A program made the position numbers and the translations under genes. Positions 5,026 to 58,669 of a stretch of 64,000 nt of DNA are shown here, in pieces. The notes below the pieces were generated by a model that was not told where the DNA came from, made no database searches, and was given only the letters and a program-made list of their open reading frames with translations. How positions within the stretch are numbered: position 1 is the stretch's first letter; each line of letters starts with the position of its first letter. The DNA comes from an uncultured Candidatus Saccharibacteria bacterium (GTDB taxonomy: Bacteria; Patescibacteriota; Minisyncoccia; Phycocordibacterales; Zambryskibacteraceae): the NCBI GenBank assembly GCA_964383705.1, contig CAYLHJ010000002.1, forward strand, positions 1,635 to 65,634, given 5' to 3'.

Positions 5026-5106
5026 AAAATTCAAAATCTGGCATATAGCCCTTAGTATTAAGCTTTTATACAATATATAGTAGCAGAAAATAGAAAATCA
5101 TTAAAA

Positions 5107-21506: not shown

Positions 21507-21578
21507 GGCCACGTAGACAAGTGGTAAGTCGAGAGTCTGCAAAACTCTTATGCGCGAGTTCGATTCTCGCCGTGGCCT
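21507..21578 (+). tRNA. tRNA-Cys (anticodon GCA)
   Basis: Acceptor ggccacg/cgtggcc. Anticodon loop cuGCAaa. T-arm gcgagttcgattctcgc. Short D-stem. Confidence 0.8.
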
Positions 21579-21592
21579 CCGGGAATATATAT

Positions 21593-21674
21593 GCCCGAGT
21601 GGCGGAACTGGTATACGCGCGCGACTTAAAATCGCGTCCCGTAAGGGATGTGGGTTCGATTCCCACCTCGGGCA
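21593..21674 (+). tRNA. tRNA-Leu (anticodon TAA)
   Basis: Acceptor gcccgag/ctcgggc. Anticodon loop cuUAAaa. Long variable arm tcccgtaagggat. T-arm gtgggttcgattcccac. Confidence 0.85.
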
Positions 21675-21739
21675 CAGAGATCAAATTATCATAGCTGAAT
21701 TTGGTGGGCATAGAGTTAAATAGTAAAGTAATATAATAT

Positions 21740-21812
21740 GCGCCCATAGCTCAGTTGGTAGAGCTGCTCCCTCTTAAGGAGAAGGTCGCAGGTTCGAATC
21801 CTGCTGGGCGCA
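21740..21812 (+). tRNA. tRNA-Lys (anticodon CTT)
   Basis: Acceptor gcgccca/tgggcgc. D-arm gctcagttggtagagc. Anticodon loop cuCUUaa. T-arm gcaggttcgaatcctgc. Confidence 0.85.
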
Positions 21813-21827
21813 CAGTGCGAAATATAT

Positions 21828-21910
21828 GGGCACGTGGCGGAATTGGTATACGCGCTAGTCTTAGGAACTAGTTCCTTAACGGATTGGGAGTTCGAGTCTC
21901 CCCGTGCCCA
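21828..21910 (+). tRNA. tRNA-Leu (anticodon TAG)
   Basis: Acceptor gggcacg/cgtgccc. Anticodon stem ctagt/actag with loop cuUAGga. Long variable arm. T-arm gggagttcgagtctccc. Confidence 0.85.
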
Positions 21911-23005: not shown

Positions 23006-23127
23006 CTCTGCCCGCACCAAAACAGTATGAGCCCAGCAACGAATTAGTTGCTGGGCTTTTCCATTTGACAGATTGTATTATTTTATGATATAGTTCGGGA
23101 AGATCAGTTCTGTTAAATTTCCTTTTC

Positions 23128-24378
23128 TTGGAGGCGCCCATGTGGGCAACAATTCGACGATACCCGAAGCGGCTGGTTTTCTTTATCGCTATCTCAATAG
23201 TTCCAATCTTCTTCTTGCTTTTCTACACCCTCTCCCACTACTCAAAGAACGAGAGTGATGTGGTGCTGGAGAGACAAGATTCAGTAAACGTAGTTACGGC
23301 CCCAACCACAGAAAGAGAGCATGAGGGGAGCGCGTCTGGATTCTTTATCCCGCTGATCCTCATTGGCGTCGCAGGCTCTATATGGAGAATGGTAAAGGGG
23401 CGTTGGCCTCATATCCTGACAATGGCGATTTTGGCTAGCGGGATTCTTTTCAACTGGCTTTGGTGGTCAATCCATCCGGCAAGTTGGCAGGAATGGCGTA
23501 ACTCGTCTAGCTTCTGGCCACTGATTTTCTCCATGTTTATCGTCGCCTTTCTCAGTGGAGAAAGTAACCCCGTTGCGAAATTCGCCCGCGGCGCTCTTCT
23601 TGGGCTCGTGATTGTGAGCATCGCCATTGGGGTAACGAGCTATGCGAGAAAAAGTTGGTGTTGGGCAGCTTCAGATGAGGCGAAAGCCCAACTCTGCGCA
23701 ACTACTTATAGTTCAACATCGACCGTCTCGCTTCCTGCGAAGTTTGACGGCCATGCTCGGGATTACTTCAATGGACCCGAAAGAGACTCCGTCCTCGCCT
23801 ACTTCCACGACATCCCCGTACTTGCAGATATTGCTGGAGCCGAATCCGGTTTCAGGCAATACAACAATGGTTCTCCTGACAGGTCCTGTAGCACTGTCTT
23901 GAGAAACAAGAACACGAATGGTACGGAAGACATGGGGGTAATGCAGATCAACGAGGTTCACTGGGGAAAAGCCAAAGAACTCGGGCATGATCTCTGCTTG
24001 CTCAAGGGAAATATGGCTTTCGCCAGACACCTTTATGAGCAAGATGGCACCCAGCCTTGGGAAGCGTCGAGTCCTGTTTGGCGAGATCACTATGTGTCGG
24101 TTCCAAGATCCACCTCATCCACCCAAATAGCGGTAGGGGGCGGAAATACCGTAACTGTTATTGCTCCAAGTGATAGCAGTTGGAGCACCCCCATCGACAC
24201 AAAGGGTCGCAGGACAAGATGTGAAGGAATTCAACACAAGAAATACCGCGCCCTGATTGATAGGAAAAGAGAATTCCAAATCGAACCTGGCGCCTTTAAG
24301 AATGTTGGCCAGTTCCGCTTAATCCAATTCCGTTCAGACAGCTCAGAAGCAACTGAGGTTTCCTGCACGGTCGGATAG
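23128..24378 (+). CDS. polytopic membrane protein with C-terminal lytic transglycosylase (SLT/lysozyme-like) domain (GC-rich gene)
   Basis: About five N-terminal TM helices. Then an SLT-like motif set (AESGFRQYN...GVMQINEVHW...AFARHLYE). GC-rich like the preceding gene. A hairpin terminator follows. Confidence 0.6.
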   Translation: MEAPMWATIRRYPKRLVFFIAISIVPIFFLLFYTLSHYSKNESDVVLERQDSVNVVTAPTTEREHEGSASGFFIPLILIGVAGSIWRMVKGRWPHILTMAILASGILFNWLWWSIHPASWQEWRNSSSFWPLIFSMFIVAFLSGESNPVAKFARGALLGLVIVSIAIGVTSYARKSWCWAASDEAKAQLCATTYSSTSTVSLPAKFDGHARDYFNGPERDSVLAYFHDIPVLADIAGAESGFRQYNNGSPDRSCSTVLRNKNTNGTEDMGVMQINEVHWGKAKELGHDLCLLKGNMAFARHLYEQDGTQPWEASSPVWRDHYVSVPRSTSSTQIAVGGGNTVTVIAPSDSSWSTPIDTKGRRTRCEGIQHKKYRALIDRKREFQIEPGAFKNVGQFRLIQFRSDSSEATEVSCTVG

Positions 24379-24486: not shown

Positions 24487-24756
24487 TTAATTAAGTGGAT
24501 ATATATTTGTGGAAAAACCGAACGAATTGAGCACGAAACGAATAATACCAAAAACTGAAACCATAATGAGCATGCCAACAAGACCCCAAACAATAGATTT
24601 CTTACCCTCTTCCCTTGCTTTATCCTCGCCGGAATTCATAACAAACTTAAAAATACCGTAGAGAAATACAACAAGTGCCACGCTAAACAAAAGTATAATT
24701 ATCGGATTAAGGATAAACTCATTAACCTTGTTGATAAGCGCAACAATTGGAGACAT
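24487..24756 (-). CDS. VirB2/TrbC-like (T4SS-pilin-like) small two-helix membrane protein, paralog 1
   Basis: 89 aa with two hydrophobic helices separated by the charged loop NSGEDKAREEGKKSIVWG. Shares the Gx(E/D)Exx(K/R)xG(K/R)xxxxWG core with the five upstream paralogs. Confidence 0.6.
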   Translation of the reverse strand: MSPIVALINKVNEFILNPIIILLFSVALVVFLYGIFKFVMNSGEDKAREEGKKSIVWGLVGMLIMVSVFGIIRFVLNSFGFSTNIYPLN

Positions 24757-24780
24757 GTAAATCTAATCTAACTTGATTAA

Positions 24781-25080
24781 CTAGAAACCAGGAACGTATG
24801 GAGTTTCGGAAATCTGAGATTGTCGGATGCCGAAGATATTCCCGAGGAAAGTAGTAAGACCCCAAACAGTTACCATGACGAAAAGGGCTACAACCCCCCA
24901 AATCATAATTCGTCTTCCACGTTCCTTGGCCTCCTCATTTCCGGCAGCAAGAATGAATGTTGCCAATCCCCAGAAAAAGAATAGCAATGCGAGACCAGCA
25001 ACTATAGGTGTTGCTGTTTCAACGATATTGCCAATTTGTGTTATGAGCGTATTGAAATATGTAAAACCCGGAGTATTCAT
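24781..25080 (-). CDS. VirB2/TrbC-like (T4SS-pilin-like) small membrane protein, paralog 2
   Basis: LALLFFFWGLATFILAAGNEEAKERGRRIMIWGVVALFVMVTVWGL: two TM helices around an acidic/basic loop. Confidence 0.6.
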   Translation of the reverse strand: MNTPGFTYFNTLITQIGNIVETATPIVAGLALLFFFWGLATFILAAGNEEAKERGRRIMIWGVVALFVMVTVWGLTTFLGNIFGIRQSQISETPYVPGF

Positions 25081-25209
25081 CGTATTAAGTTTAATTTAAC
25101 TTATTAATAATCCTTATAATCAATTGAGTACATTAATGATAATAACTCAAAAAACCTCTAAAAACAACGGACTGGGGACAATTTTTCTCCCCCACCCCCA
25201 CACAAAACC

Positions 25210-25536
25210 CTAATTAACAGGAAGACTATATATAGGAGAACCGCCCAGAAAAACATTTTGAAGAAGTTCAACAATTCCCCAAATAGAAATCATTACAAAA
25301 AGGGCTACAACCCCCCATATTAAAAGCCTTCTGCCGTCCTTAACCGCCTCCTCACTTCCCGCCGCCAATATAAATTTGGCTATACCCCAAAAAAATAGAA
25401 GAAGAGCAACACCAATCGTGAGAGGTATAAGACCTTTCAGAATTGAAGCAATGGTTCCAATAATATTCTGGATACTTGCCGTAGCGGCAAAAGAAAATAT
25501 TGGGAAAATAAATAAAATCAAAATTTTCTTTTTCAT
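25210..25536 (-). CDS. VirB2/TrbC-like (T4SS-pilin-like) small membrane protein, paralog 3 (with signal peptide)
   Basis: N-terminal signal-like MKKKILILFIFPIFSFAATAS, then LLLFFWGIAKFILAAGSEEAVKDGRRLLIWGVVALFVMISIWGI. Confidence 0.6.
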   Translation of the reverse strand: MKKKILILFIFPIFSFAATASIQNIIGTIASILKGLIPLTIGVALLLFFWGIAKFILAAGSEEAVKDGRRLLIWGVVALFVMISIWGIVELLQNVFLGGSPIYSLPVN

Positions 25537-25961
25537 GGATTTGTATCAGGTAGTTGGGGTAGCCCTATCGGACCAGAACCAAAAATACTGTTTGAAAGAA
25601 CTTGGACTATACCCCAGATAGAAACTGCAACAAAAATCCCAACTGCTCCCCAGAGCATAAGATTTTTTCCTTCCTTTTGAGCATCTTCACTTCCCCCCGC
25701 TTGAATAAACTTCACTAGACCCCAAAAGAAAACAACTACTGTTGCACCAACTAATACTGGAAATAAAGAACTCGTTATATTTGTAACAATACAAATAAAA
25801 TCACCGAAATTTTGTGGAGGACCAGACGGGGCGCCAGAAAAAACTCCAGCTGGATTTGAAACGCATGCAGCATAAATCGTATTTGGCGAAAAAATCAAAC
25901 CAACCATAAAAATAATTACAAGAAAATGAAACAAAATATTTTTTAAAAAATAGATCCTCAT
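25533..25961 (-). CDS. VirB2/TrbC-like (T4SS-pilin-like) small membrane protein, paralog 4
   Basis: Signal/TM N-terminus, then VVVFFWGLVKFIQAGGSEDAQKEGKNLMLWGAVGIFVAVSIWGI. A 4-nt overlap (ATGA) with paralog 3 suggests an operon. Confidence 0.6.
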   Translation of the reverse strand: MRIYFLKNILFHFLVIIFMVGLIFSPNTIYAACVSNPAGVFSGAPSGPPQNFGDFICIVTNITSSLFPVLVGATVVVFFWGLVKFIQAGGSEDAQKEGKNLMLWGAVGIFVAVSIWGIVQVLSNSIFGSGPIGLPQLPDTNP

Positions 25962-26365
25962 GTTAGCTGGTCAATAGTGGCCTTTATCGCAGCAGAAATC
26001 GCCCAAGCACCCAAAAGCACCGCTGTACCTATGGCCGCGTACAGAAAAGCTCTCTTTGCTGTTTCAAGCTTAGTCTCATTTCCTTGCGCCGTTACAAAAA
26101 GAAAACCGGCGTAAATAATATATATTACGGCAATAACGCCGCCTAAAGGCAAGATGACAGTATTAATTATCAAATCAATGAATTCATACAGACTATCAGC
26201 ACCAGAAGCTAAAGGATTTGGTATTGATATGCTATATGACGGGTCATTTCCACCAATATCACCATCATCATTACCACCAATATCATGATTGCTAGCAAAA
26301 ACAGTGAAAGAGAGAGAAAGGAAGGTTATAAAAGATAGGACAGCTATATAACGAAATCGTTTCAT
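25958..26365 (-). CDS. VirB2/TrbC-like small membrane protein, divergent paralog 5
   Basis: Signal peptide. A Gly/Asp-rich stretch (HDIGGNDDGDIGGNDPS). Then two helices around the loop QGNETKLETAKRAF. 4-nt overlap with paralog 4. Confidence 0.5.
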   Translation of the reverse strand: MKRFRYIAVLSFITFLSLSFTVFASNHDIGGNDDGDIGGNDPSYSISIPNPLASGADSLYEFIDLIINTVILPLGGVIAVIYIIYAGFLFVTAQGNETKLETAKRAFLYAAIGTAVLLGAWAISAAIKATIDQLT

Positions 26366-26387
26366 ATTTGTAATATTATATCATTCA

Positions 26388-26795
26388 TTAAAAACCAATA
26401 AGAGTGAAACCTTGACCGGGCAATAATAAGGCTCTCACAATTGTATTTACGATCAGCCAAGCTGATAGAACAACAACAAAGCCAATTCCGGCTTTTGTAA
26501 AAATAGATTTAGCCTTTTTTGCCTGCCCCTCATCCCCCGCTGAAGTAAGATAAAGGAAACCAGCCCAAACAAAAGAAATTGCAACCAATGCGGTAGACAT
26601 GATAATAAGAAAATTTATTATCCTTACACCAAGTTCTACCAAGTCATTAAAATCACAATCATTGGGATCAACAGCCGGATCACAAAAAATTAGATAGCCG
26701 GGTTCTTGTGGTGAATCGGCCGAAAAAACTGGTAACGCAATAAAAAAGATTGAGGTGATAACTACAAATAAAATCTTATTTGAATGACTTAACAT
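26388..26795 (-). CDS. VirB2/TrbC-like small membrane protein, divergent paralog 6
   Basis: Signal peptide. A Cys/Asp-containing segment (FCDPAVDPNDCDFND). Two helices around SAGDEGQAKKAKSIF. Confidence 0.5.
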   Translation of the reverse strand: MLSHSNKILFVVITSIFFIALPVFSADSPQEPGYLIFCDPAVDPNDCDFNDLVELGVRIINFLIIMSTALVAISFVWAGFLYLTSAGDEGQAKKAKSIFTKAGIGFVVVLSAWLIVNTIVRALLLPGQGFTLIGF

Positions 26796-44126: not shown

Positions 44127-47100
44127 TTAATTAGTCTTTCTTTTCTTTGAAACAGAAGCGGAAACCAAGTTCAAACCCATAATAGATAGAGTCAGTGAAA
44201 TCAAAGCCATGAATGTTGAGAATGACTTTTTGTTGTCTGCAAAATTGATTGGACCATTCCCCGCATTTGGCAAACCTGGGAGCTCCGAAGTTGCACCCAA
44301 AACTTCCCCTAAAGGACTTATGCCGCCGGCGCCACCGCCACTTCCACCACTACTTCCACTGCTACCCCCACCACCCCCATTATTTCCACTACTACCACTA
44401 CTACGACGTGATGAAGGTGAAGGTGGATCATCATCACTTGTATCAACATTAGTTACAATTATCTCTTCTTCTGAAGAATCATCATCGTTTGAATTCACCA
44501 CATCAAATTTCTCTATAGACTCATCAATAGAAACTTCACCAAGACCAGAGATATTTTCCCAACCATCTTGCATAATTTCATCTAGAACATAATCTCCAAA
44601 TGGAACATCTTCAAATGTTACGCAACCATTGTCTCCTGTAACACCGCTATATCCTTCATAAATGTCAACTAACAAACTACCGGAATTATCTGCAAACCAA
44701 GATGGGTTTTGAACATTGTTTTCTCCATCAAATATGCCGAAGTTAACGGGGCCATCTGAAAGCGGAGTGAATGACTGCCAATAACTGTGATCACCCTTAT
44801 ACCCGCCCCAGAAACTAAACTGGCCTTGAATTCTTAAATCCAACACATCATCTGACTGCGAGAAGCCCGGATATACTTCTAGCGGTGATACCCAATTATC
44901 TACAGTAGAATATTCTGCATCTGCTGGATTATTTCCTCCTTGATTTGTCCATGTCCCGATTGCATTAGCTAAATACGAAGTTCCGGAAAGGAGAGCTACC
45001 GAATCTGCTCCAGCAACTAGACTAGAATCAACTGATAAATCGTTCTGAACTTCTTCCCCTCGGAGCATTATTGTCCATCCAGAAAGAAGGTTTTCTTCTG
45101 AAATTTCATCATCGTATTTACATACGGTTACACCAGCAATTTCTGGATCAGGTTCACCATCTCCCGGATCATTTGGTTCTTCTGGCTCACATGCACCAGA
45201 GCTAATTCCCAAAGTTACTGAAGATGAGGCGCTAATTTCACCATCCTCGCCATATGAGGCGCTAGCATTTGCTGTGTTTTTTACGTCACAAATATTTGGC
45301 ACCTTATGAAACACTCTAACAGCATCGACATCATAACCGTCTGCTGTTGTTTCAAATAAACTTTTATTAGATGACTCTGAAAGACGAATCTTGTCTGATG
45401 TGGAGAGAGAACCTAAATCAACTTCACCATCGCGATCAACAATACCTAGATCAACCCAGTTAGATCCATCCCAAGCCTCAACTTTTACCGATTCTGTTGG
45501 ATATGTTCCGCCCGTAGTCTCATAAACCTTAATATCATTTCCAACACCATTCCATACTGGATTATCAAAGGTAACAACAATATTTCCATTATCAAACCCT
45601 AAAGCAAAGAAAGAGTTCGGGACAACAACATCAGAAGCGCTTCCATTTGTTTGAGCTACACCTAATATATAGCTTGGATCAGATCGTTCTGGTAAAACAT
45701 TTGTTCCATCTTTCCTTTTCCCTTGATTATTATCTGAAGTACCACTAGCCCATTCATTCATTGATAAGGCGGCGTCTAGAGTTACTTCAAAAGATAGTGA
45801 CCCGTTTGCTCCAGCACTCTTTGATCCAAGATTCCATGTTACAGTCCCTGGTAGAAGGCCATCATGTACTCCGCCATCTGTCGCAGAATCAACGACATAT
45901 GTTGTGCCAGTCGGTAAGTTGTCAGTAATAACTAAATTATCTACATCATCATCGGAAACTTTCCAATCAATGGTAAAAGTAATTTTACCAGTGCTTGTAG
46001 CAAATGTTGCACTCTTTGAGAGCTCTAGGGAAGGAAGATCGGGGCAAGTTTCATTCTCAACTATAATATATCTATCTTGTTCTAAATTCTCAAAATTTGG
46101 TGATTGAGATAGTAGGTCGTTAGCCTTAGCATCAGCAAAACTTCCACCAACTCTGTACCCCAAAAGTCTATACTCGCCAGGAGAACATTCTCCACCAATT
46201 GGAATAACCCTACCGTCATCTGTTATTTCATTCGTTGAATAGTCAGCTGGAGCGTTCATAACGGCTGTATTTGCTTCATATGGGTCACCATTAAATCCAG
46301 TTGCATTTAACCCATAGAAACCACTGCCATTATTTCCAGGATAGACTACATCCCCAACTTTGACTTCAGGCCAATTCCAACTTGATTGCATTGGAAAATC
46401 ATAATCATTGGCAGATTCAGAAGTTGCATGTTCACCATCTAAGTATTTTGCTATATGAACAACAACAGTATTTCTCTCTTCGGGAGGAGGAGGTGGTGGT
46501 TCACCACAATCTTTACCATTCCATGAAAGAGCAAACATTAGGCCTGCTGGATTGGATTCTGGACTACTTCCATCAACTCCTTTATTAGTTGCCTCAATTT
46601 TTATTTCATTTGACCCACTTACGAGCAAACTAGATACATCGTAGGAATCTTGAGTGCCTATTTGAAAATTATTCTCATCAACAAGTTCTGCTCCAACCTG
46701 AATTCCATTTACCCAAACAGTGTAGAAATTATCTGCCGCAACATTTAATGTGCCACCTATTGGCGTTCCAGGGATGTTAAAGTTTTTTATAAATGTTTTT
46801 GTAGTATCTACCAAAGTGTCTGCTGGCAAGACTGGATTTTCAGACCAAATCCACTTTGCACTATCACTACTTCCATCTACATCAGCATCCCATGCTGGGT
46901 GCGTAGGCGACAAAACGACAGCAAAAGTGTCTGGGGTATCACCTGGATTATCTAGTTTGGTATCGTTATTACTTACTACCAAACCATCTATAGGATCACA
47001 TTCTTCTTTTTCTTCTTTACATTGCACGCTTACATTGTCGAGGAATGTTCCAACAGAGTTGCCAGTTCCACGATCCTCAAATTGGATACGGGAAAGAGAA

Positions 47101-48446
47101 TCATTTGCAACAACCGTTTTTGAATATTCTGTCCATTCCGTTTGAGAATCAGTGCTATTCAAAGAAAATGGTGAACCATTAACATCTGTCCCTTCCCAAG
47201 TAACTCCAAGAATATTTTGGGTATCATTTTCTCCAGGTCGAGGTGAAAAAGCGAATTTTATTTCATATTCACGACCAGGAACAGTAGGAATATCTTGATA
47301 AATTTTTGTTGAAGCCGGCTCTCCGCTTGTATCCCCATCTGGGCCTTCCCAGTCACCGTCTAATTCAGTATGTTGCAAACCGTCAAAAGAGAGCCAACCA
47401 TTAACATTCCTATGAAGTTCGAGGCTTGCTAATTCTGGCTGATTATCCCCACCAAATGGTCCTTCTGTATTCATCCATTCAACGGCCCAATCAAGATTAG
47501 AAGTCCCATTGTCAAAATTATCCCATAGTGCTCCGTGTGTAACTTCAGGGTTTTCGAAACTGCCATTCTTTATGAGTTCCTCTCCTGGAACGCATTGGGT
47601 TGGTTCCGGTTCAGGATCACGGGGAGCATTTTCTTCACACCAAGCGTCTCTAGTTTCTTTTTCTTCAGCATCTTCCCCTTCATAAGGAAAATCGCCGTGG
47701 TCCTCATGTTCATTCCAAGCACTTTCATTTATTTTAATTGCTTCCCATGGGTTTTCTTCTGAACCAGTAGCGTGACAAATATTTATTTTTTTCTCTTCAG
47801 ATTCTCTTTTTGTGCCCGTTACTTGGACATTATCAACTCTGGCGCCGCTCTTACTTGAATATGTTTTACCATCAAATTTTATAACAACAGAATCGTCAGA
47901 AAGTTCTGTCGGAAGAGCAAAAGTGACCTCAGGACTCCACACCGTTACATTCTTTATATGATATTCACCTAATTGTGTATATGAGGCATCAGTAGCTTTT
48001 TTCCAATAGACAATAAGTCGATCTGTAGATTCAACTTTATCGCCCGAATCTCCGCGCCACTTGAATGTCAACTGTATATTTTTGTATCCAGACACATTAA
48101 CAGAGTGAGAAATGGAAGCATTCTCTGTAAGACGAGCATTGGCACCAACAAGAGGAGAATTAACATCCTTGCGAGCAAAACTGGCGTTTCCTTCAATCTC
48201 CACCCAACCATTTCCAACATTGTCATTGTTTACAGCACCAAATGATTCTGAAAATAATACACTTGGAGATAAAGCTATCGCCTCCTTGACCGCAATGAGG
48301 CCTGGGCCAAATGCCTGAATGATCATCAAGAGAGACAATGCAATACTAGTAGCTGGACGAGCTTTCTTGAAAAGGAGTTTTGAGATTTTTTTTCTTTTAT
48401 AAATCATATTAGTAATTATTAATAATGTTAATAAAATAAACCACAC
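44127..48446 (-). CDS. giant cell-surface protein (1439 aa) with C-terminal sortase-type sorting signal
   Basis: Signal peptide, then long beta-rich Asn/Asp/Gly/Thr-rich repeats. A Gly/Ser linker (GGGGGSSGSSGGSGGGAGG). The C-terminus has an LPGLPNAG motif, a hydrophobic helix and a basic tail (SKKRKTN). Confidence 0.8.
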   Translation of the reverse strand: MWFILLTLLIITNMIYKRKKISKLLFKKARPATSIALSLLMIIQAFGPGLIAVKEAIALSPSVLFSESFGAVNNDNVGNGWVEIEGNASFARKDVNSPLVGANARLTENASISHSVNVSGYKNIQLTFKWRGDSGDKVESTDRLIVYWKKATDASYTQLGEYHIKNVTVWSPEVTFALPTELSDDSVVIKFDGKTYSSKSGARVDNVQVTGTKRESEEKKINICHATGSEENPWEAIKINESAWNEHEDHGDFPYEGEDAEEKETRDAWCEENAPRDPEPEPTQCVPGEELIKNGSFENPEVTHGALWDNFDNGTSNLDWAVEWMNTEGPFGGDNQPELASLELHRNVNGWLSFDGLQHTELDGDWEGPDGDTSGEPASTKIYQDIPTVPGREYEIKFAFSPRPGENDTQNILGVTWEGTDVNGSPFSLNSTDSQTEWTEYSKTVVANDSLSRIQFEDRGTGNSVGTFLDNVSVQCKEEKEECDPIDGLVVSNNDTKLDNPGDTPDTFAVVLSPTHPAWDADVDGSSDSAKWIWSENPVLPADTLVDTTKTFIKNFNIPGTPIGGTLNVAADNFYTVWVNGIQVGAELVDENNFQIGTQDSYDVSSLLVSGSNEIKIEATNKGVDGSSPESNPAGLMFALSWNGKDCGEPPPPPPEERNTVVVHIAKYLDGEHATSESANDYDFPMQSSWNWPEVKVGDVVYPGNNGSGFYGLNATGFNGDPYEANTAVMNAPADYSTNEITDDGRVIPIGGECSPGEYRLLGYRVGGSFADAKANDLLSQSPNFENLEQDRYIIVENETCPDLPSLELSKSATFATSTGKITFTIDWKVSDDDVDNLVITDNLPTGTTYVVDSATDGGVHDGLLPGTVTWNLGSKSAGANGSLSFEVTLDAALSMNEWASGTSDNNQGKRKDGTNVLPERSDPSYILGVAQTNGSASDVVVPNSFFALGFDNGNIVVTFDNPVWNGVGNDIKVYETTGGTYPTESVKVEAWDGSNWVDLGIVDRDGEVDLGSLSTSDKIRLSESSNKSLFETTADGYDVDAVRVFHKVPNICDVKNTANASASYGEDGEISASSSVTLGISSGACEPEEPNDPGDGEPDPEIAGVTVCKYDDEISEENLLSGWTIMLRGEEVQNDLSVDSSLVAGADSVALLSGTSYLANAIGTWTNQGGNNPADAEYSTVDNWVSPLEVYPGFSQSDDVLDLRIQGQFSFWGGYKGDHSYWQSFTPLSDGPVNFGIFDGENNVQNPSWFADNSGSLLVDIYEGYSGVTGDNGCVTFEDVPFGDYVLDEIMQDGWENISGLGEVSIDESIEKFDVVNSNDDDSSEEEIIVTNVDTSDDDPPSPSSRRSSGSSGNNGGGGGSSGSSGGSGGGAGGISPLGEVLGATSELPGLPNAGNGPINFADNKKSFSTFMALISLTLSIMGLNLVSASVSKKRKTN

Positions 48447-49620: not shown

Positions 49621-49693
49621 TGGGCGGTAGAGGACTCGAACCTCTGACCCTCTCAACGTCAATGAGATGCTCTACCAACTGAGCTAACCGCCC
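49621..49693 (-). tRNA. tRNA-Val (anticodon GAC)
   Basis: Reverse complement: gggcggt tagctcagttggtagagc atctc attGACgt tgaga ... ttcgagt ... accgccc a. Confidence 0.85.
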
Positions 49694-49721
49694 CTTAAAG
49701 AAAACTTAATCTAAAAATACC

Positions 49722-49811
49722 TGGCGGAAGAGGCGAGATTTGAACTCGCGAGAGGATTACTCCCCTGCCGGTTTTCGAAACCGGTGCCTTCAACCACTCA
49801 GCCACTCTTCC
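49722..49811 (-). tRNA. tRNA-Ser (anticodon CGA), CCA encoded
   Basis: Reverse complement: acceptor ggaagag/ctcttcc, anticodon stem ccggt/accgg with loop uuCGAaa, long variable arm, T-arm gcgagttcaaatctcgc. Confidence 0.8.
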
Positions 49812-49895
49812 ATAATAACTTATTCGTGGATCAAAATATCCTAGCATTTTTTTTGTTTTTTAAACAAAAAATGTTAGAATCTCTTTGTTTTATAT

Positions 49896-49967
49896 GGCCC
49901 TATCGTCTATCGGTTAGGACACAAGCTTTTCAAGCTTGGAAGCCGGGTTCGATTCCCGGTAGGGTCA
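49896..49967 (+). tRNA. tRNA-Glu (anticodon TTC)
   Basis: Acceptor ggcccta/tagggtc. Anticodon stem caagc/gcttg with loop uuUUCaa. T-arm ccgggttcgattcccgg. Confidence 0.8.
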
Positions 49968-50275: not shown

Positions 50276-50437
50276 TTATATAAACTGAAAACTTTTTATA
50301 TTCTTAGCAATTGAGTTCCAATTCTGTATAATGTGGGTCACATTCAGAAACTCGGTCGGAAAGTGAGCGAGATGTTGAATTCTTGATAATTGCTGGATAA
50401 TTGGTTTTGAATTCTGTATCTTTAGGATCACTGGTTT

Positions 50438-51598
50438 ATGAAAATTCTCTCAATTGAAACAAGCTGTGACGAAACCGCTGTTTCTATCTTAGATATTAAT
50501 GGCAAAGCGACATCTCCAAAAATCCTATTGCTAGGAAATGCCCTTTTTTCTCAAGTTAAAATCCACGAAAAATATGGGGGAGTATTCCCAAACATAGCAA
50601 AGCGCGAACATGCAAAAAACTTACCCCCATTGCTTTTAAAAGCATTGGATCAGGCCGGCTTTGAAAAGAGAACAGGCAGGAATCAATTTACAAAAAATCA
50701 AATAAAAAAAGTTGGAAAAATTTTAGAGCGCGAGTATGGGGTCGCGCAAACACTCATAGATTTACTTTCAAATATTGAAAAACCCCCTATTGATATTATA
50801 GCCGTTACAAAGGGCCCAGGACTTGAACCCGCCCTTTGGGTTGGAATAAATGTTGCAATCGCACTTGGTGTCCTCTGGAACATTAAAGTTTTGCCAATAA
50901 ACCATATGGAAGGTCATATATTTTCAGTTTTGTATAAAAAAAATGAAGATATTAAGTTTCCAGTATTAAGTTTGCTCATATCGGGTGGCCACACTGAACT
51001 CGTATATTCGAAAAGCTTACTCTCTTATAAAATCCTTGGAGAAACAAGAGACGATGCGGTAGGAGAAGCATTTGATAAGGTTGCCCGAATGATTTCTTTA
51101 CCATACCCAGGAGGCCCACAAATAAGTCGCCTTGCGGAGAGAAAAAGGAAAAGTGGATACAAAAAATCTCTCTGGGGTTTCCCTAGACCGATGATTCACT
51201 CGAAAGATTTAGATTTCTCCTTTTCGGGATTAAAGACTGCAGTTCTCTATGCAATAAAAGGGAAAAAATTAAAAAAATCCCAAAAAGAGGAAATCGCTTT
51301 TGAATTTGAAGAAGCCGTAACAGATGTTCTTATCTCAAAAACAAGATCTGCCCTAAAAATGTTCCCCACTAGATCTCTCATTGTTGCCGGTGGAGTAATT
51401 GCCAATAAACATCTCCAAAAATCATTTAATAAACTAATAAGAGAATTTAATAATCTTAAACTTTATGTACCCGAAAAAGAATTGGCAACAGATAATAGCG
51501 TAATGATTGGAATTGCCGCTTTTTGTAAAATAAAGACATCTACCAAGAAGAATTTATGGAGCAAAAAAATAAAAGCTGAGGGAAACTTGAGACTTTAA
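50438..51598 (+). CDS. tsaD: tRNA N6-adenosine threonylcarbamoyltransferase TsaD (Kae1/YgjD family)
   Basis: MKILSIETSCDETAVSILD, the metal-binding HMEGH, GGVIANKHL, and the ASKH-fold C-terminal motifs. Confidence 0.9.
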   Translation: MKILSIETSCDETAVSILDINGKATSPKILLLGNALFSQVKIHEKYGGVFPNIAKREHAKNLPPLLLKALDQAGFEKRTGRNQFTKNQIKKVGKILEREYGVAQTLIDLLSNIEKPPIDIIAVTKGPGLEPALWVGINVAIALGVLWNIKVLPINHMEGHIFSVLYKKNEDIKFPVLSLLISGGHTELVYSKSLLSYKILGETRDDAVGEAFDKVARMISLPYPGGPQISRLAERKRKSGYKKSLWGFPRPMIHSKDLDFSFSGLKTAVLYAIKGKKLKKSQKEEIAFEFEEAVTDVLISKTRSALKMFPTRSLIVAGGVIANKHLQKSFNKLIREFNNLKLYVPEKELATDNSVMIGIAAFCKIKTSTKKNLWSKKIKAEGNLRL

Positions 51599-54500
51599 TT
51601 AGGAGAGATTGTTTTCTTCGATTTTAATAATCGTGCGAATTTCCTTTTTCCTGGATATTAGCCAAAAGAGAGAAGCTGAAACGATAATAATAAGTAAAAT
51701 AAGTGGCAAAATTATTACATAGAATTCAAGGACAAAAATTAGAACCGTAGCAATGACAAGCCCAATCGTGAATATAAATGTTTTTCTAATCTGAGCAGAC
51801 TCTTCCGTCAAAGCTCCGTTTCTATTCTGAAAATTAACAATTCCGCGAGACAGTAAATATATGGATAGCAATATGGTCAAAAATACCGCAATTGCATTCA
51901 TTGATTCATCCCAACCTTGTGGACCAGCAAAAACTGCCGCCGCTAGAGAGCGAAAGTCCCTTTCTTCTCCAATTTCATTCTCGGTACTAGAGGCGCTTAT
52001 CATTGCTACGCTATTTGGGTCCTCAGCAACAATAGCCCCAGTAGCGAATTGAATGCCCTTTTGGGAGAGAATTGGGGATTCTTTTGTCCTTGATTGAGAA
52101 GTATCTTGTCCTTGATAGTTATTTTGTCCTTGATACCCCCTATCTAGATCTGAAAAGCCTTGAGCTTTCAAGCTTGTGAGGAAGTTTCTAAAATCAACTA
52201 TCTCTTGCTCCTGCTGGGCATTCAACGGAAATGCTTGATTACATACTATTTCATTTACCTTTTTCTTCGTAAGAATATAGACAAATCCAGTACTTTGATC
52301 ATGACCCCAAGGAGTGAGGATGTCTCCAATATAGCGCTCCTGAAATACTCCTACCGCATCATAGGTTCCTTTATCAAATACGCCAGTGATTGGGAGATTC
52401 TTGAAACCCTCTAATTCTCTTAGGAAAACTTGGAGTTTAATAACTTCAAATGAATCGTTAACCCAATCTATACGCATATAATCTTCCAAGTAGTTGCACG
52501 CCAAAGTCGCACCAAGGACTTCTGGCTCTGGTCGGTTTCTGCTACTTCGTCCGCCACCACCACCCCCACCACCACCGCCATTGTCTCCCCCTCCACCACC
52601 ACCGTTATCTTCTGGATCAATAACAATTGTTAGGGTCTCCGTGTCACTACCGCATTGATTTGTAGCAGTAAGTAAGACAGTAAATGTTCCTGATTCGGTT
52701 GGAGTACCACTTAAGACATTGCTGGAAACAGAAAGGCCGGCAGGAAGAGTTGAGGTTGCTATGTTGTAAGTAATTGGTGTTGTTGTGCCGGTCGCAGTAG
52801 CAGAAAGTGTGTATGAAAAGGCATTTCCAACTTTACCGCTAGCCGTTAGTGCACTATCAATAGCTGGCAATGGGCAACTTGGTCCTTGAACACGAGTAAC
52901 AACGACGCTGTCTGTCGCATGTTGACCAGAAGCGTCTTGGCAATCAATTAAAAATGTATGACTTCCATTTGTTGGTGGATAAAAAGGACTTTGAGAATCA
53001 ATCGGGCCAGCACTTCCATTTAAAGCAACTAAACCAAGATCCTGAACACCTTGGATAGAAAGATTGCATGAAGTTGTATTCGTAGAAACCCAATTAACTG
53101 TAAATTGTTCGCCACTTGAAAGAAGAAGCGGACCTTGAGAGCCGTTAGCTGTGATGTCTGCGGTTGGAGATTGGGGTAAGCAATCAGTAGAAGATGTCGC
53201 GGTAACGGTATTTGATGGGTTGGAATCCCCTCTACTATTTGTTGCTTTAACAAAATATGAGAAAGATGTGCTTGCATTCACCAAATCCGTATAAGAAATC
53301 GCTGTTGTAGAAGCAATCTCAGATCCATTTCTAAATATTTTATAGAAAGATGCCTGTGAAACGGCGTTCCAAGATAAGTCAATTCGACCACCGCATTGAG
53401 AGCCAGTATTAGCAGAAAGGTTTGGAGATTGTGGTTTTCCCCCTCCACCACCACCGTTATCTTCTGGATCAATAACAATTGTTAGGGTCTCCGTGTCACT
53501 ACCGCATTGATTTGTAGCAGTAAGTAAGACAGTAAATGTTCCTGATTCGGTTGGAGTACCACTTAAGACATTGCTGGAAACAGAAAGGCCGGCAGGAAGA
53601 GTTGAGGTTGCTATGTTGTAAGTAATTGGTGTTGTTGTGCCGGTCGCAGTAGCAGAAAGTGTGTATGAAAAGGCATTTCCAACTTTACCGCTAGCCGTTA
53701 GTGCACTATCAATAGCTGGCAATGGGCAACTTGGTCCTTGAACACGAGTAACAACGACGCTGTCTGTCGCATGTTGACCAGAAGCGTCTTGGCAATCAAT
53801 TAAAAATGTATGACTTCCATTTGTTGGTGGATAAAAAGGACTTTGAGAATCAATCGGGCCAGCACTTCCATTTAAAGCAACTAAACCAAGATCCTGAACA
53901 CCTTGGATAGAAAGATTGCATGAAGTTGTATTCGTAGAAACCCAATTAACTGTAAATTGTTCGCCACTTGAAAGAAGAAGCGGACCTTGAGAGCCGTTAG
54001 CTGTGATGTCTGCGGTTGGAGAACCTGGCGGATTCACAATCGGTGGATTCACAACAACAGAATCCGTAGCGGTCTTTCCATTTCCATCATCACAGCTAAT
54101 ACTGTAAGTGACCGCCGTGTCTGTCGGATAAAAAGGATGTGATGGTGAAAGATCCATCTCGTCAGAAAGATTAACATTTGAATCAATCGGGGCCCCCAAT
54201 GAACAACTTTGTGTGTTAGTAGAATCCCATTCAATTAAAAGATTTTCTCCTTGCGAAAGGGTAATTGGTCCCTGAGAGCCATTTGCTTTTATATCCACAG
54301 TCGGATCATTTGAAGGAACATTGTTGCTGGAAACTTTAAAGCGGGCAACCACACTACCTTGGCTTTCCCAACCAGGAGCAATAGTTCCAAGATTTACACC
54401 CTGTGATGTTACGAACTCATCTCCAGTCTGCCCAAAAGGAAATTTTTTTGATGAAAGAGACTGGTCTGGATACCATTTTGTAGAACCCGGTATATAGGTG

Positions 54501-54982
54501 AGAGACTCGGAACTTGAAATAATAATTGATGATTGGCCATCAACCTGTGAAGCGTTATCAGCCCAAAGCGAACCATCCGCACTAATTGAAGTATCTTCAG
54601 ATTCTGGAACAGAGATTGAGGCGCGAACATTCAGGGCGTCTTCGGATGAGGTATTGTGATAATAAATTGTAAAACTGACAACATCTCCAGCCTCAGCATC
54701 TGTTGTAACCGCCCAATTGGTGGTTGAATTAGGAAATTTTGTAAAATTAGAAGATCTAAGTGTTTCAAAATCCTCTGGGTCAGTGTTAAAAGTGGCCGCC
54801 GCCCGAACAATCTTTGCAAACAAAGCATGGCTCGCATCGAAAGATATAAAAACATAGGCAAACATAACCGAAAATAGAGCAAAAAGGAGAATTGCCTTTA
54901 TTTTTTTTGATATTCTGTTTGTGTATCCAGTATTCATAGGCAGAATGTTTTGTCGTAACCAACATACTCCATTTTTTTTCAT
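51599..54982 (-). CDS. large surface/membrane protein (1127 aa) with FN3-like and putative Ig-like (He_PIG-like) modules, poly-Gly linkers and C-terminal TM helices; contains an exact internal duplication
   Basis: N-terminal TM/signal. The PTADITANGSQGP...IVIDPEDNGGGGGG block (about 194 aa) occurs twice. An FN3-like segment (YKIFRNGSEIASTTAISYTDL). C-terminal hydrophobic helices. The stop abuts the tsaD stop. Confidence 0.8.
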   Translation of the reverse strand: MKKNGVCWLRQNILPMNTGYTNRISKKIKAILLFALFSVMFAYVFISFDASHALFAKIVRAAATFNTDPEDFETLRSSNFTKFPNSTTNWAVTTDAEAGDVVSFTIYYHNTSSEDALNVRASISVPESEDTSISADGSLWADNASQVDGQSSIIISSSESLTYIPGSTKWYPDQSLSSKKFPFGQTGDEFVTSQGVNLGTIAPGWESQGSVVARFKVSSNNVPSNDPTVDIKANGSQGPITLSQGENLLIEWDSTNTQSCSLGAPIDSNVNLSDEMDLSPSHPFYPTDTAVTYSISCDDGNGKTATDSVVVNPPIVNPPGSPTADITANGSQGPLLLSSGEQFTVNWVSTNTTSCNLSIQGVQDLGLVALNGSAGPIDSQSPFYPPTNGSHTFLIDCQDASGQHATDSVVVTRVQGPSCPLPAIDSALTASGKVGNAFSYTLSATATGTTTPITYNIATSTLPAGLSVSSNVLSGTPTESGTFTVLLTATNQCGSDTETLTIVIDPEDNGGGGGGKPQSPNLSANTGSQCGGRIDLSWNAVSQASFYKIFRNGSEIASTTAISYTDLVNASTSFSYFVKATNSRGDSNPSNTVTATSSTDCLPQSPTADITANGSQGPLLLSSGEQFTVNWVSTNTTSCNLSIQGVQDLGLVALNGSAGPIDSQSPFYPPTNGSHTFLIDCQDASGQHATDSVVVTRVQGPSCPLPAIDSALTASGKVGNAFSYTLSATATGTTTPITYNIATSTLPAGLSVSSNVLSGTPTESGTFTVLLTATNQCGSDTETLTIVIDPEDNGGGGGGDNGGGGGGGGGGRSSRNRPEPEVLGATLACNYLEDYMRIDWVNDSFEVIKLQVFLRELEGFKNLPITGVFDKGTYDAVGVFQERYIGDILTPWGHDQSTGFVYILTKKKVNEIVCNQAFPLNAQQEQEIVDFRNFLTSLKAQGFSDLDRGYQGQNNYQGQDTSQSRTKESPILSQKGIQFATGAIVAEDPNSVAMISASSTENEIGEERDFRSLAAAVFAGPQGWDESMNAIAVFLTILLSIYLLSRGIVNFQNRNGALTEESAQIRKTFIFTIGLVIATVLIFVLEFYVIILPLILLIIIVSASLFWLISRKKEIRTIIKIEENNLS
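52586..53170. repeat. direct repeat copy 1 (585 bp, 100% identical to copy 2)
   Basis: Identity with 53438..54022 checked line by line. The period of 852 bp equals 284 codons, so the frame is preserved. Confidence 0.9.
53438..54022. repeat. direct repeat copy 2 (585 bp)
   Basis: See copy 1. Confidence 0.9.
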
Positions 54983-55310
54983 TTATGTCAAATAAAGACG
55001 TGAGTCACTAGATTACATTACAGCCTTATTTATAGCCATATTATTAATATTTGTCCTTTAACAAGTTATGACCTTTATTAAAACATCACGGTAGTCAATA
55101 TATATTCATAAACATAACTACATTTAAATACCCAATGAATAGGCCAATTTTTCTTAAAAGAACGTAAATTTTTGTCCTTTATGCTTAATATTTTCTTAGC
55201 TTTATCCCCTATTTTTTGACATATTTTAAGAACTGAATCATTAATATGGATTACGAATAATTGAATGGTCTAATATAAACAGTTTTCTCATGCTACGATA
55301 GACAATATTC

Positions 55311-57443
55311 ATGAATGAAAAACTTCTAAAAGCCTACGATCCTAAAGAGACGGAGCAAAGAATATATGAGAAATGGGAAAAGAGTGGCTATTTTAACCCA
55401 GACAATCTTCCTGGAGAAAGAAGGGGTCCATTTACTATTGTAATGCCACCACCAAATTCTAATGGTAATCTCCACACAGGACACTCACTATTTATAACGC
55501 TTGAGGATATAATCACCCGATTCAAGAGAATGTGTGGATACAAAGCTTTGTGGCTACCCGGGGCTGATCATGCCGGATTTGAAACTCAAGTAGTTTATGA
55601 AAGAAAACTCGAAAAAGAAGGCCGCTCGAGATTTGGTATGGATCCCAAAGAGCTCTACAGCGAGATACTCTCCTTTACTTTGGAAAATAAAAAAAATATG
55701 GAGTCTCAGGTCAGAATGCTCGGGGCATCTTGCGATTGGTCCCGTGAAAAATTTACTCTTGACGATGAGGTGGTTAGGAAAACTCAAAAAACTTTCATTA
55801 AAATGTTTGATGAAGGATTAATTTATCGAGGAAAGCGCGCAATTAATTGGTGCTCAAAACACCAAACCTCACTCTCTGATGTTGAAACAGAAACAACGGA
55901 GGAAAACACACCGCTTTATTATTTTAAATATGGACCGTTTGAAATAGCGACCGTTAGACCTGAAACTAAATTTGGGGATAAATATGTTGTTATGCATCCA
56001 GATGACAGCAGATATAAGGAATATTCTCATAATCAAAAAATTAAAGTTGAATGGATAAACGGAGAGATAGAAGCGACTATCATTAAAGATAAATCTATAG
56101 ACATGAATTTTGGTACAGGAGTTATGACCATCACTCCGTGGCATTCTCAAATTGATTATGAAATCGCGAAACGACATGGCCTAGACATAGAACAAATAAT
56201 TGATTGGCGAGGTAAATTACTGCCTATTGCTGAAGAATTTTCAGGAATAAGCATAAAAGAAGCCAGACCAAAAATAGTTGAAAAATTAAATGCAAAGGGT
56301 TTACTTACTCGTGTAGATGATAAATATCAAAATGCGGTCAAGAGATGCTACAAATGCAATACAATTATTGAACCTCAGATAAAAGATCAGTGGTTTGTGA
56401 AGATGGAACCATTAGCTCGGATGGCTATCGAATCAGTTAATCGTGGTGATATTAAATTTATCCCCAATAACTATGAGAAGATATTTCGATATTGGATGGA
56501 AAATAGTCAGGATTGGAATATATCAAGGCAAATAGTTTGGGGAATACCAATTCCAGCTTGGTTTAAAGATGACAAGGTTCATGCAAGCATTGAAAAACCG
56601 CCCGGAGACGGTTGGATTGCCGATTCTGACACCTTTGATACTTGGTTCTCAAGTGGCCAATGGCCTCTTATGATGACCGGCTTCCCTGAAAATAAGGATT
56701 TTAAAGAATATTATCCTACAGACATAATGGAAACTGGTCATGACCTAATTTTCAAGTGGGTACCAAGAATGATTATGTTTGGCCTTTACCTTACACAAAA
56801 ACCACCATTTCATACTGTCTACCTCCACGGTCTTGTAAATGATGCTCAGGGCAAAAAAATGAGTAAATCTAAAGGAAATACAATAAACCCGACCGATCTG
56901 ACAGAAAAATACGGAACTGATGCCTTACGAATGGCTCTTGTTGTCGGTAACGCTCCTGGAATGGATTTGGCCCTCCGTGAAGACAAGGTAAAGGGCTATA
57001 AGCACTTTGCCAATAAGATATGGAATGCCTCTCGCTTTGTATTAGAAAACACAGAAAATATAGATTACGAAAAAATACCAAATTTGTTGGAGGGAGATAA
57101 AAAATATATCGATGAGATGGATAAAATCTTTGAAGACATCACTCAAGATCTAAATAAACTCAGATTCCATCTTGCATCGGAAAAAATCTATCACTATTTC
57201 TGGCACACATTTGCTGACATAATTATAGAGTCATCTAAAAATATAATATTCAATGGAACTGAGTCTGAGAAAGAGTCGGCACAATGGACGATCTACCACA
57301 TTCTTATTTCATCGCTTAGATTGCTTCACCCATTCATGCCATTTATTACAGAAGAAATTTGGTCATTTCTACCACACAATAACAAAAAAATACTTATGGT
57401 CGAATCTTGGCCAGTCAAAATAATAGATGACAATATCAGTTGA
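55311..57443 (+). CDS. valS: valyl-tRNA synthetase (short form without C-terminal coiled-coil)
   Basis: Class I HIGH (PPPNSNGNLHTGHSL) and KMSKS (KMSKSKGN). The ValRS-type N-terminus YDPKETEQRIYEKWEKSGYFNP. LWLPGADHAGFETQ. 710 aa. Confidence 0.85.
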   Translation: MNEKLLKAYDPKETEQRIYEKWEKSGYFNPDNLPGERRGPFTIVMPPPNSNGNLHTGHSLFITLEDIITRFKRMCGYKALWLPGADHAGFETQVVYERKLEKEGRSRFGMDPKELYSEILSFTLENKKNMESQVRMLGASCDWSREKFTLDDEVVRKTQKTFIKMFDEGLIYRGKRAINWCSKHQTSLSDVETETTEENTPLYYFKYGPFEIATVRPETKFGDKYVVMHPDDSRYKEYSHNQKIKVEWINGEIEATIIKDKSIDMNFGTGVMTITPWHSQIDYEIAKRHGLDIEQIIDWRGKLLPIAEEFSGISIKEARPKIVEKLNAKGLLTRVDDKYQNAVKRCYKCNTIIEPQIKDQWFVKMEPLARMAIESVNRGDIKFIPNNYEKIFRYWMENSQDWNISRQIVWGIPIPAWFKDDKVHASIEKPPGDGWIADSDTFDTWFSSGQWPLMMTGFPENKDFKEYYPTDIMETGHDLIFKWVPRMIMFGLYLTQKPPFHTVYLHGLVNDAQGKKMSKSKGNTINPTDLTEKYGTDALRMALVVGNAPGMDLALREDKVKGYKHFANKIWNASRFVLENTENIDYEKIPNLLEGDKKYIDEMDKIFEDITQDLNKLRFHLASEKIYHYFWHTFADIIIESSKNIIFNGTESEKESAQWTIYHILISSLRLLHPFMPFITEEIWSFLPHNNKKILMVESWPVKIIDDNIS

Positions 57444-58122
57444 GACAATCTTTTTTTCATTGGTCGGCGGTATTGTTCCATCAATACTGTGGCTTTTCTT
57501 TTGGCTAAAAGAAGATAAAAAGCGACCCGAACCACGAGGGCTCATCGCATTAACTTTTATTTGTGGAATGCTAATGGTGCCCCTTGTCATCCCATTTCAA
57601 AAACTAACGCAGATTGACTCAAATGGAACCCTTACATTTTTCATTTGGGCGACACTTGAAGAATCGTTAAAATTCGCCGCGGCATACTTTATAGCTATAC
57701 GACGCAAAGAAGATAACGAACCAGTAGATGGTCTCATATACATAATGACAGCCGCACTGGGGTTCGCGGCTCTTGAAAATGCGATATTTATATTCCAACC
57801 ACTTTCAAGTGGCAATGTAACCGAAAGCCTTATCACGGGAAATATCCGTTTTATTGGAGCAAGCCTACTTCACACTATTTCTTCCGCGGTTATTGGAATA
57901 GCCCTTGGTTTATCATTCTACAAAGATAAGTTCACAAAACTTTTTAGTGTTCTATTCGCATTACTTATCGCAATCGCATTGCATACTGCGTTCAACTTAT
58001 TTATAATGAAAGAGCATAGTGGAACAACATTTGCCACCTTCGGATTTGTCTGGATTACGATTGTTGTTTTAATGCTCTTTTTTGAGAAAATAAAGAAAAT
58101 ATACCCAGTAAATAAAATATAA
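57427..58122 (+). CDS. PrsW-like intramembrane metalloprotease
   Basis: Polytopic. Motifs ATLEESLKF (EExxK-like), GFAALEN and a conserved His (LLHTISSA). Its start overlaps the valS stop. Confidence 0.6.
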   Translation: MTISVETIFFSLVGGIVPSILWLFFWLKEDKKRPEPRGLIALTFICGMLMVPLVIPFQKLTQIDSNGTLTFFIWATLEESLKFAAAYFIAIRRKEDNEPVDGLIYIMTAALGFAALENAIFIFQPLSSGNVTESLITGNIRFIGASLLHTISSAVIGIALGLSFYKDKFTKLFSVLFALLIAIALHTAFNLFIMKEHSGTTFATFGFVWITIVVLMLFFEKIKKIYPVNKI

Positions 58123-58125
58123 AAA

Positions 58126-58590
58126 ATGTTCAAGGATAAAAGATCTTTTTTTGAAAAATTAACCGGCTCTGTAAGGATAGAGGATGATGATTTAGAGCCA
58201 GCTGTGCCTATAAAAGCTCGAAATAACGAAAGTGCTGAATGGCTTGAAGAGGAGGCAGAAGATGGTCAGCTTACTGTTGATGTATACGAAACTCCGTCAG
58301 AAATTATTATTAAAACAATGGTTGCCGGAGTTAAACCAGAAGACCTTGATATATCTATCACGAGGGAAATGGTCACTATCAGGGGAAAGCGAGAGGAAGA
58401 CCGAAGTGCGTCTTCTGAGGATTACTTCCATAGAGAGCTTTATTGGGGATCATTTTCTCGTACCATTGTCCTGCCAAAAGAAGTCGATATAGACGAAGCG
58501 GAAGCAGTTGAAAAATATGGCTTACTTATATTGAAACTACCAAAATTAGACAAAAACAAAGAAGCTCGACTAAAGGTAAGGGGCTCTTAA
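58126..58590 (+). CDS. Hsp20/alpha-crystallin small heat-shock protein
   Basis: Alpha-crystallin domain (LTVDVYETPSEIIIKTMVAGVKPEDLDISI..VTIRGKREE..SFSRTIVLPKEVD..AEAVEKYGLLILKLPK). Confidence 0.85.
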   Translation: MFKDKRSFFEKLTGSVRIEDDDLEPAVPIKARNNESAEWLEEEAEDGQLTVDVYETPSEIIIKTMVAGVKPEDLDISITREMVTIRGKREEDRSASSEDYFHRELYWGSFSRTIVLPKEVDIDEAEAVEKYGLLILKLPKLDKNKEARLKVRGS

Positions 58591-58595
58591 AAATG

Positions 58596-58669
58596 TGCTT
58601 GGACCCAGGTTCGAACTGGGGACCCTTCGCTCTTCAGGCGAATGCTCTACCAACTGAGCTATCCAAGCT
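58596..58669 (-). tRNA. tRNA-Phe (anticodon GAA)
   Basis: Reverse complement: gcttgga tagctcagttggtagagc attcgc cuGAAga gcgaa ... ttcgaac ... tccaagc a. Confidence 0.85.

Follow-up and report, generated by a model that had tools for sequence, protein, structure and literature searches.

Bacterial surface proteins whose length varies through repeats of high sequence identity have been brought together as the Periscope Proteins, with SasG/Aap, Rib/alpha C, Sgo_0707 (SHIRT), Esp and CdrA as examples (Whelan et al. 2021, PMC8201768). In these proteins a distal N-terminal domain is carried on a stalk built from folded beta-sandwich domains, the repeats exceed 50 amino acids (aa) and share 100 % DNA identity, and the length of the stalk differs widely among orthologues (PMC8201768). 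A second point of comparison is given by the fibrillar adhesins, which are long multidomain extracellular proteins with stalks of immunoglobulin (Ig)-like, He_PIG and fibronectin type III (FN3)-like domains (PMC8286594, PMC9210967). Here, we describe a gene with features of both groups in a 64-kb stretch of DNA (hereafter the window) from an uncultured Patescibacteria lineage, which encodes a predicted modular surface protein of 1127 aa and holds two identical 585-bp copies of a two-domain module, R (R1 and R2 in the order of the protein), on either side of a unique spacer, S. Gene conversion within a gene is a general route by which the repeated domains of surface proteins evolve in concert, and very recent recombination within the gene probably made the two copies seen here.

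The identity of the copies is complete. Direct base comparison of positions 52586-53170 with 53438-54022 revealed 585 bp without one mismatch at an offset of 852 bp, which is 284 codons and therefore preserves the reading frame; the original prediction had claimed this base-for-base identity, this period and this in-frame spacing within an 1127-aa open reading frame (ORF), and all of it was borne out, the strand being the minus strand. The exact run allows zero bases of extension at either end, identity at the same offset drops directly outside it to a background of ~20-40 %, and a repeat search of the whole window returned the 52586/53438 pair as the sole long repeat; an exact match of 585 bp cannot have arisen by chance. 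In the protein, the copies form identical segments in one shared frame, whose sharp ends coincide with domain or linker boundaries predicted by the domain parse and an AlphaFold2 model. A module of about 194 aa ending in poly-Gly had been proposed: the Gly6 end stands, and the module proper is 195 aa long and consists of two domains plus the linker. The idea of a tandem array was not upheld, as the copies are interspersed around the unique 267-bp spacer and Tandem Repeats Finder reported no array in the region, a null result that follows from the interspersed layout and a period above 500. Two further explanations were rejected: a simple tandem duplication of an 852-bp unit predicts 852 bp of identity at offset 852, where 585 bp are observed, and selection at the protein level is ruled out as the source of the identity, since synonymous differences are also zero.

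Set against the Periscope Proteins, the gene shares the plan of an N-terminal domain on a beta-sandwich stalk, repeats (the two 195-aa segments) longer than 50 aa with 100 % DNA identity, which is expected to permit the gain or loss of whole in-frame units within the gene, and a widely differing stalk length, here between species (orthologues of 911-1775 aa by domain parse). It differs from them in that only two copies are present, with another domain between them (a period of 284 aa, ~1.7 units) in place of a tandem array, that the stalk mixes three domain types, that the anchor is predicted to be a peptidoglycan (PG)-binding domain with C-terminal transmembrane (TM) segments and not of the LPXTG or outer-membrane kind, and that the host belongs to an uncultured Patescibacteria lineage. 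Surface anchor and projected head are here predictions made from sequence, drawn from the leader, a PG_binding_1 domain, TM-like segments and a conserved head. With the fibrillar adhesins the protein has in common its length, its predicted extracellular multidomain build and its stalk of Ig-like, He_PIG and FN3-like domains, and for R, Foldseek ranks the cadherin-like modules of SraP, an S. aureus adhesin, first (1.7e-9), with further matches to titin Ig pairs and cadherins; unlike them, it has no adhesive domain recognised by comparison with Pfam and the PDB. The protein may thus be likened to a periscope or fibrillar-adhesin stalk, and we stop short of counting it among the Periscope Proteins in the strict sense.

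We favour, with a probability of roughly 0.7, the view that R1 and R2 were made by very recent within-gene recombination between paralogous Ig-like modules. The ancestral order would have been A-I, A-II, F, (A-II, He_PIG, Gly), PG-binding, where A-I and A-II are two classes of Ig-like domain and F is the class to which the spacer belongs, and the single upstream A-II domain between A-I and F would have been overwritten by a copy of the downstream R2 module, giving R1 and lengthening the stalk from ~4 to 6 domains. The copying, presumably from R2 to R1, would be non-allelic and of gene-conversion type, the same process to which the exact tracts of orthologues are ascribed. Once made, the 585-bp copies could serve as substrate for unequal exchange of RecA type, by which 852 bp (284 aa, three domains) would be lost or gained without a shift of frame, and the distance between the cell and the conserved head would depend on stalk length.

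Domain comparisons bear on this order of events. The A domain of R is of the A-II class, which sits before and between the F domains of orthologues, its best match being P0009_A3 at 59 %; three orthologues (P0005, P0007 and P0009) have the order A-I, A-II, F, A-II. R aligns from end to end with the A-B-polyGly unit of P0015 at 48.5 % identity, the succession A-long, He_PIG, poly-Gly and PG-binding is common to the query, P0015 and P0016, and the junction from A-II to He_PIG occurs among the closest orthologues only in P0015, P0016 and P0018. In a neighbour-joining (NJ) tree, the He_PIG domains of R1 and R2 are both members of the 'last-B' clade, made up of the final He_PIG domain ahead of the PG-binding domain; because of this membership and the full-length alignment to P0015, R2 is probably the ancestral copy.

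The orthologues themselves carry traces of such copying. Seven homologues with DNA (P0002, P0003, P0006, P0007, P0008, P0009 and P0015) all have the gene flanked by HSP20, PrsW and a class I aminoacyl-tRNA synthetase (aaRS) on one side and TsaD on the other, and are therefore positional orthologues. In L001 (P0006, GCA_964646785.1), an exact 288-bp repeat (4934-5221 and 5492-5779), each copy of which covers one A-II domain, encloses an F domain in an R-S-R arrangement like that of the window, and the F domains adjacent to the tract are ~58 % identical. In L002, domains with an overall identity of 81 % and 67 % contain exact runs of 116 bp and 81 bp, respectively, and L006 has one of 164 bp; the paralogous segments around the exact tracts of these three orthologues are 67-85 % identical, and in a permutation test on all three, 0 of 10,000 permutations reached the observed runs. 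Whole-protein self-BLAST gave no off-diagonal matches, and windowed BLAST was used instead. The L002 gene is identical in DNA in three separate assemblies, as is the P0003 gene (L007-L009), which carries no exact tract. In the NJ tree, A-II copies cluster by genome and A-I copies by position, the A-I domain of the query grouping with the first A domain of orthologues. On these sequence comparisons, the tracts of L001, L002 and L006 together with the tree pattern are the signature of non-allelic gene conversion and concerted evolution. The window shares with that phenomenon the exact DNA tracts within diverged paralogous domains and the clustering of paralogues by genome and not by position, but its own tract spans the whole two-domain module including the junction of A-II and He_PIG, and at this extent conversion and fresh duplication look alike.

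Several points weigh against recombination between paralogous modules as the source of the pair. The junction of R1 with F (Gly6 followed by Lys-Pro-Gln) has no homology to that of R2 with its linker, and two-sided homologous conversion is therefore insufficient, a non-homologous or microhomology step being needed at the right end of R1. On either side, identity extends as far as homology can be detected, the tracts of L002 and L006 cover only part of a domain, and a discrete duplication fits these facts equally well. No relative above ~55 % identity with a complete gene was found, so the event is unrooted. The original prediction that such repeats mediate length variation holds between species, as the number of modules in orthologues differs greatly at the same locus, but within species none was seen for P0002 and P0003 (three assemblies each). 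Finally, the copy number is that of assembled contigs, and the comparison with a second strain (Logan assembly of SRR33452760) covers the outer flanks and the outer ends of R.

A one-off recent segmental duplication, in which non-homologous or microhomology-mediated template switching inserted the 585-bp module 267 bp away without gene conversion, is an account that we hold to be credible, if rather improbable. It would explain a copy of module size with ends set sharply against non-homologous sequence on both sides, and CAATCTCCAA is found both where S begins and where it meets R2, while the Asp-Asn-Gly6 end of R resembles the Asp-Asn-Gly10 that follows. Yet it requires two precise in-frame breakpoints at domain boundaries, in a gene whose orthologues commonly show homology-driven copying of A-II domains, and the domain order of P0005, P0007 and P0009 indicates that an A-II target at the position of R1 probably existed beforehand. 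A fresh duplication and a homogenised older duplicate are equally compatible with the data.

An artefact of assembly, either a single genomic R through which the contig was mis-threaded along a graph loop or a longer array that was collapsed, is a good deal less probable. The contig derives from a metagenome, a 585-bp exact repeat is longer than short reads, and a graph of the form X-R-S-R-Y fits R(SR)n with n > 1 equally. Against this stands a second read set. In the Logan assembly of SRR33452760, a cluster mate with >= 90 % identity was found for the tsaD protein and another for the aaRS protein; the contigs concerned, L013 and L012, match the window at 98.9 % and 94.6 % identity and therefore represent another strain. 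L013 ends at window position 52615 and L012 at 53993, each exactly 30 nt within R from its outer ends at 52586 and 54022. In a de Bruijn graph with the k of 31 used by Logan, a unitig entering a repeat from unique sequence must stop k-1 = 30 nt inside it; the ends of R therefore have two contexts in this read set too, which branches exactly at both outer boundaries. The spacer, moreover, encodes an entire domain in frame, with homologues in the F domains of orthologues, and joins the gene on both sides through R only, so that there are at least two copies of R, and the analogous exact tracts of L002 were recovered in three independent assemblies. The two copies are genuine and the region is correctly assembled in outline; of the three sources first proposed for the zero divergence, recent duplication and gene conversion are of the right class, conversion having direct support in the mosaic tracts of orthologues, and a single-copy artefact is unlikely now that contigs are seen to break 30 nt inside R.

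High-frequency or programmed phase or length variation by slippage in the G-rich, Gly-coding tracts, which was originally proposed as a property of these tracts and for which their place at the module ends and in the next linker and the differing length of the poly-Gly linker among orthologues might speak, is very improbable, since the codons are mixed (GGT, GGA, GGG and GGC) with a longest G homopolymer of 5, the linker is unchanged in the Logan strain, trinucleotide-unit changes keep the frame and give no on/off switch, and the tract is a conserved linker behind He_PIG domains. The tracts had also been said to flank both copies; one lies within each copy at the gene-sense 3' end, none precedes either copy, and an additional tract, the Asp-Asn-Gly10 linker, lies behind R2 only. 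A poly-Gly linker stands behind nearly every He_PIG domain in the orthologues, and poly-Gly after He_PIG is thus a conserved feature of linker design.

Beyond the repeat, the Logan strain gives a view of selection on the gene. In the 5' third, 34 synonymous and 9 non-synonymous codon differences separate it from the window, from which we take the gene to be functional, constrained and under purifying selection between strains. Divergence across the locus (50336-58650 against L012 and L013) is uneven, with identities of 95.3 % for the aaRS, 95.4 % for the 5' third of the gene, 99.9 % for its 3' third and 98.5 % for tsaD, and the number of differences per 99 nt declines from 7-8 to 1-2 as the repeat is approached, a pattern that suggests a boundary of between-strain recombination near or within the repeat region. 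An attempt to date the duplication through this strain failed, as divergence adjacent to the repeat (1 of 1017 nt in the C-terminal flank) is too low to predict differences between R1 and R2.

Table 1. Features of the surface-protein gene, in the order of the protein, and its two neighbours; positions are those of the window.
Feature	Position	Strand	Residues (aa)	Basis and remarks
Whole gene, predicted modular surface protein (head, Ig-like stalk, PG-binding domain, C-terminal membrane anchor)	51599..54982	-	1127 in total	ATG start; ORF list, translation, Pfam
N-terminal hydrophobic segment, putative signal peptide or signal anchor	54839..54898	-	~29-48	Kyte-Doolittle scan
Conserved head domain N, predicted beta-sandwich	54305..54802	-	61-226	Orthologue conservation, AlphaFold2
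Ig-like domain A-I, unique, position-specific	54044..54307	-	226-313	jackhmmer parse
Repeat copy R1	53438..54022	-	321-515	A-II Ig-like (53738-54022, aa 321-415), He_PIG (53456-53737, aa 416-509), Gly6 linker; exact identity to R2
Unique spacer S, FN3/Ig-like 'F' domain	53171..53437	-	516-604 (89 aa)	Homology to orthologue F domains
Repeat copy R2	52586..53170	-	605-799	A-II (52886-53170), He_PIG (52604-52885), Gly6; exact identity to R1
Asp-Asn-Gly10 linker	52550..52585	-	800-811	After R2; diverged repeat of the Asp-Asn-Gly6 end of R; short repeat family
PG-binding domain region	52268..52537	-	816-905	PF01471 at aa 846-884; kept in all orthologues
Three C-terminal TM-like hydrophobic segments	51653..51898	-	~1029-1110	Hydropathy scan; C-terminal region kept in orthologues
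tsaD, convergent neighbour	50438..51598	+		Pfam TsaD 6e-79; abuts stop codon of surface gene; synteny marker
Class I aaRS, divergent neighbour	55311..57443	+		Pfam tRNA-synt_1 2e-121; synteny marker

The features of the protein are collected in Table 1, with the domain order taken from an iterative hidden Markov model (jackhmmer) parse of the protein and its relatives. The product is identical to NCBI protein P0001, which is encoded on a 70,060-bp contig. That it is a surface protein, as originally proposed, is in keeping with the N-terminal hydrophobic segment, of a kind comparable to the leaders that begin orthologues P0015-P0018, the Cys-paired Ig-like domains (each stalk domain has two Cys), PG_binding_1 and the three TM-like segments, and the hydropathy scan supports a predicted extracellular body with a C-terminal anchor. 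PG_binding_1 (PF01471) scores 23.3 bits, marginally above its gathering cut-off of 23, and P0018 has a precomputed match to the same family. Each R copy contributes one stretch to the He_PIG (PF05345) match, which at 65.9 bits lies well above the cut-off of 24 (E 4.6e-18). The AlphaFold2 model of R consists of two beta-sandwiches and a disordered Gly tail, with a predicted local distance difference test (pLDDT) score of 85. The spacer is 50-58 % identical to orthologue F domains that give weak fn3 (PF00041) matches, but itself has no match to that family and only sub-threshold matches to Ig_2, Ig_7 and RGI_lyase (E 0.005-0.02); as the fn3 gathering threshold is not reached in the query, we call it FN3/Ig-like only. 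The linker before R1 (54023-54052, minus strand, aa ~311-320) reads Val-Asn-Pro-Pro-Ile-Val-Asn-Pro-Pro-Gly; its coding sequence is an imperfect tandem of 15 nt (gtgaatccaccgatt / gtgaatccgccaggt), which makes it a minor duplication at the level of the linker beside the large repeat.

The columns of the head average 65 % identity across 13 orthologues and its AlphaFold2 model is a beta-sandwich with a pLDDT of 93, yet it has no Pfam family at threshold and no PDB sequence match, and a Foldseek search against the PDB gave nothing significant (best E 0.011, template modelling score <= 0.38). Head, PG-binding domain and C-terminus are conserved among orthologues, whereas the stalk varies in the number and order of its A, F and B domains.

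The closest named relatives of the protein come from Candidatus Zambryskibacteria, Minisyncoccia and Paceibacterota, which therefore places the window in a Zambryskibacteria-like genome of the Patescibacteria, or candidate phyla radiation (CPR), with a GC content of ~39 %. A PrsW gene comes after the class I aaRS. The stop codons of the surface gene and tsaD meet at 51598 and 51599, convergent and with zero bases between them, and in L001, L005, L006 and L010 the two genes are separated by 1-12 nt or share 4-11 nt, an arrangement that implies no space for terminators and overlapping 3' transcripts. A protein-pattern scan of GTDB genomes found no further copies of the gene, an exact 30-mer of R was absent from the JGI metagenomes and GTDB genomes searched, and a contig search for the exact protein returned none.

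More tentatively, and with doubts that outweigh our confidence, we suggest that the gene may represent a Patescibacteria-specific surface family fixed between aaRS and tsaD, whose stalk is continually rebuilt by domain-level conversion and duplication under a constant head, and whose stalk length tunes the reach to a partner, in effect a 'periscope' system of the CPR. If this were true, the reach of small, probably host-attached cells towards a partner would be tuned by stalk length, and the 585-bp repeat would capture one moment of the process. Rapid changes of length that keep the frame are known to arise from repeats of high identity in surface-protein genes, a pattern extended here to an uncultured lineage of Patescibacteria whose cell-surface biology is almost unknown; no relevant work on surface adhesins of Patescibacteria came up in a literature search. 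The spread of stalk lengths between species implies that such changes are tolerated and fixed. The main added value of the locus lies in its conserved position, in conversion tracts that are clear in several species and in a head whose fold has no match, and, being easy to find between aaRS and tsaD, it could mark strain-level variation in long-read metagenomes.

Elsewhere in the window, six tandem small paralogous genes (24487-26795, minus strand; 89-142 aa) all match T4SS_pilin (PF18895), one of them also TrbC/VirB2, and a 59-nt repeat family seen in a whole-window scan falls in the conserved TM-coding part of these paralogues. A 1439-aa ORF with a GTG start and a DUF11 match (44127-48446, minus strand), just upstream of a tRNA cluster at 49621-49967, is probably another surface protein. 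The GC-richest stretch of the window (21995-24378, plus strand; 0.49 against ~0.38) directly follows a cluster of four tRNA genes (21507-21910); its two ORFs of 336 and 416 aa have no Pfam match, and it may be foreign DNA inserted beside the tRNA genes.

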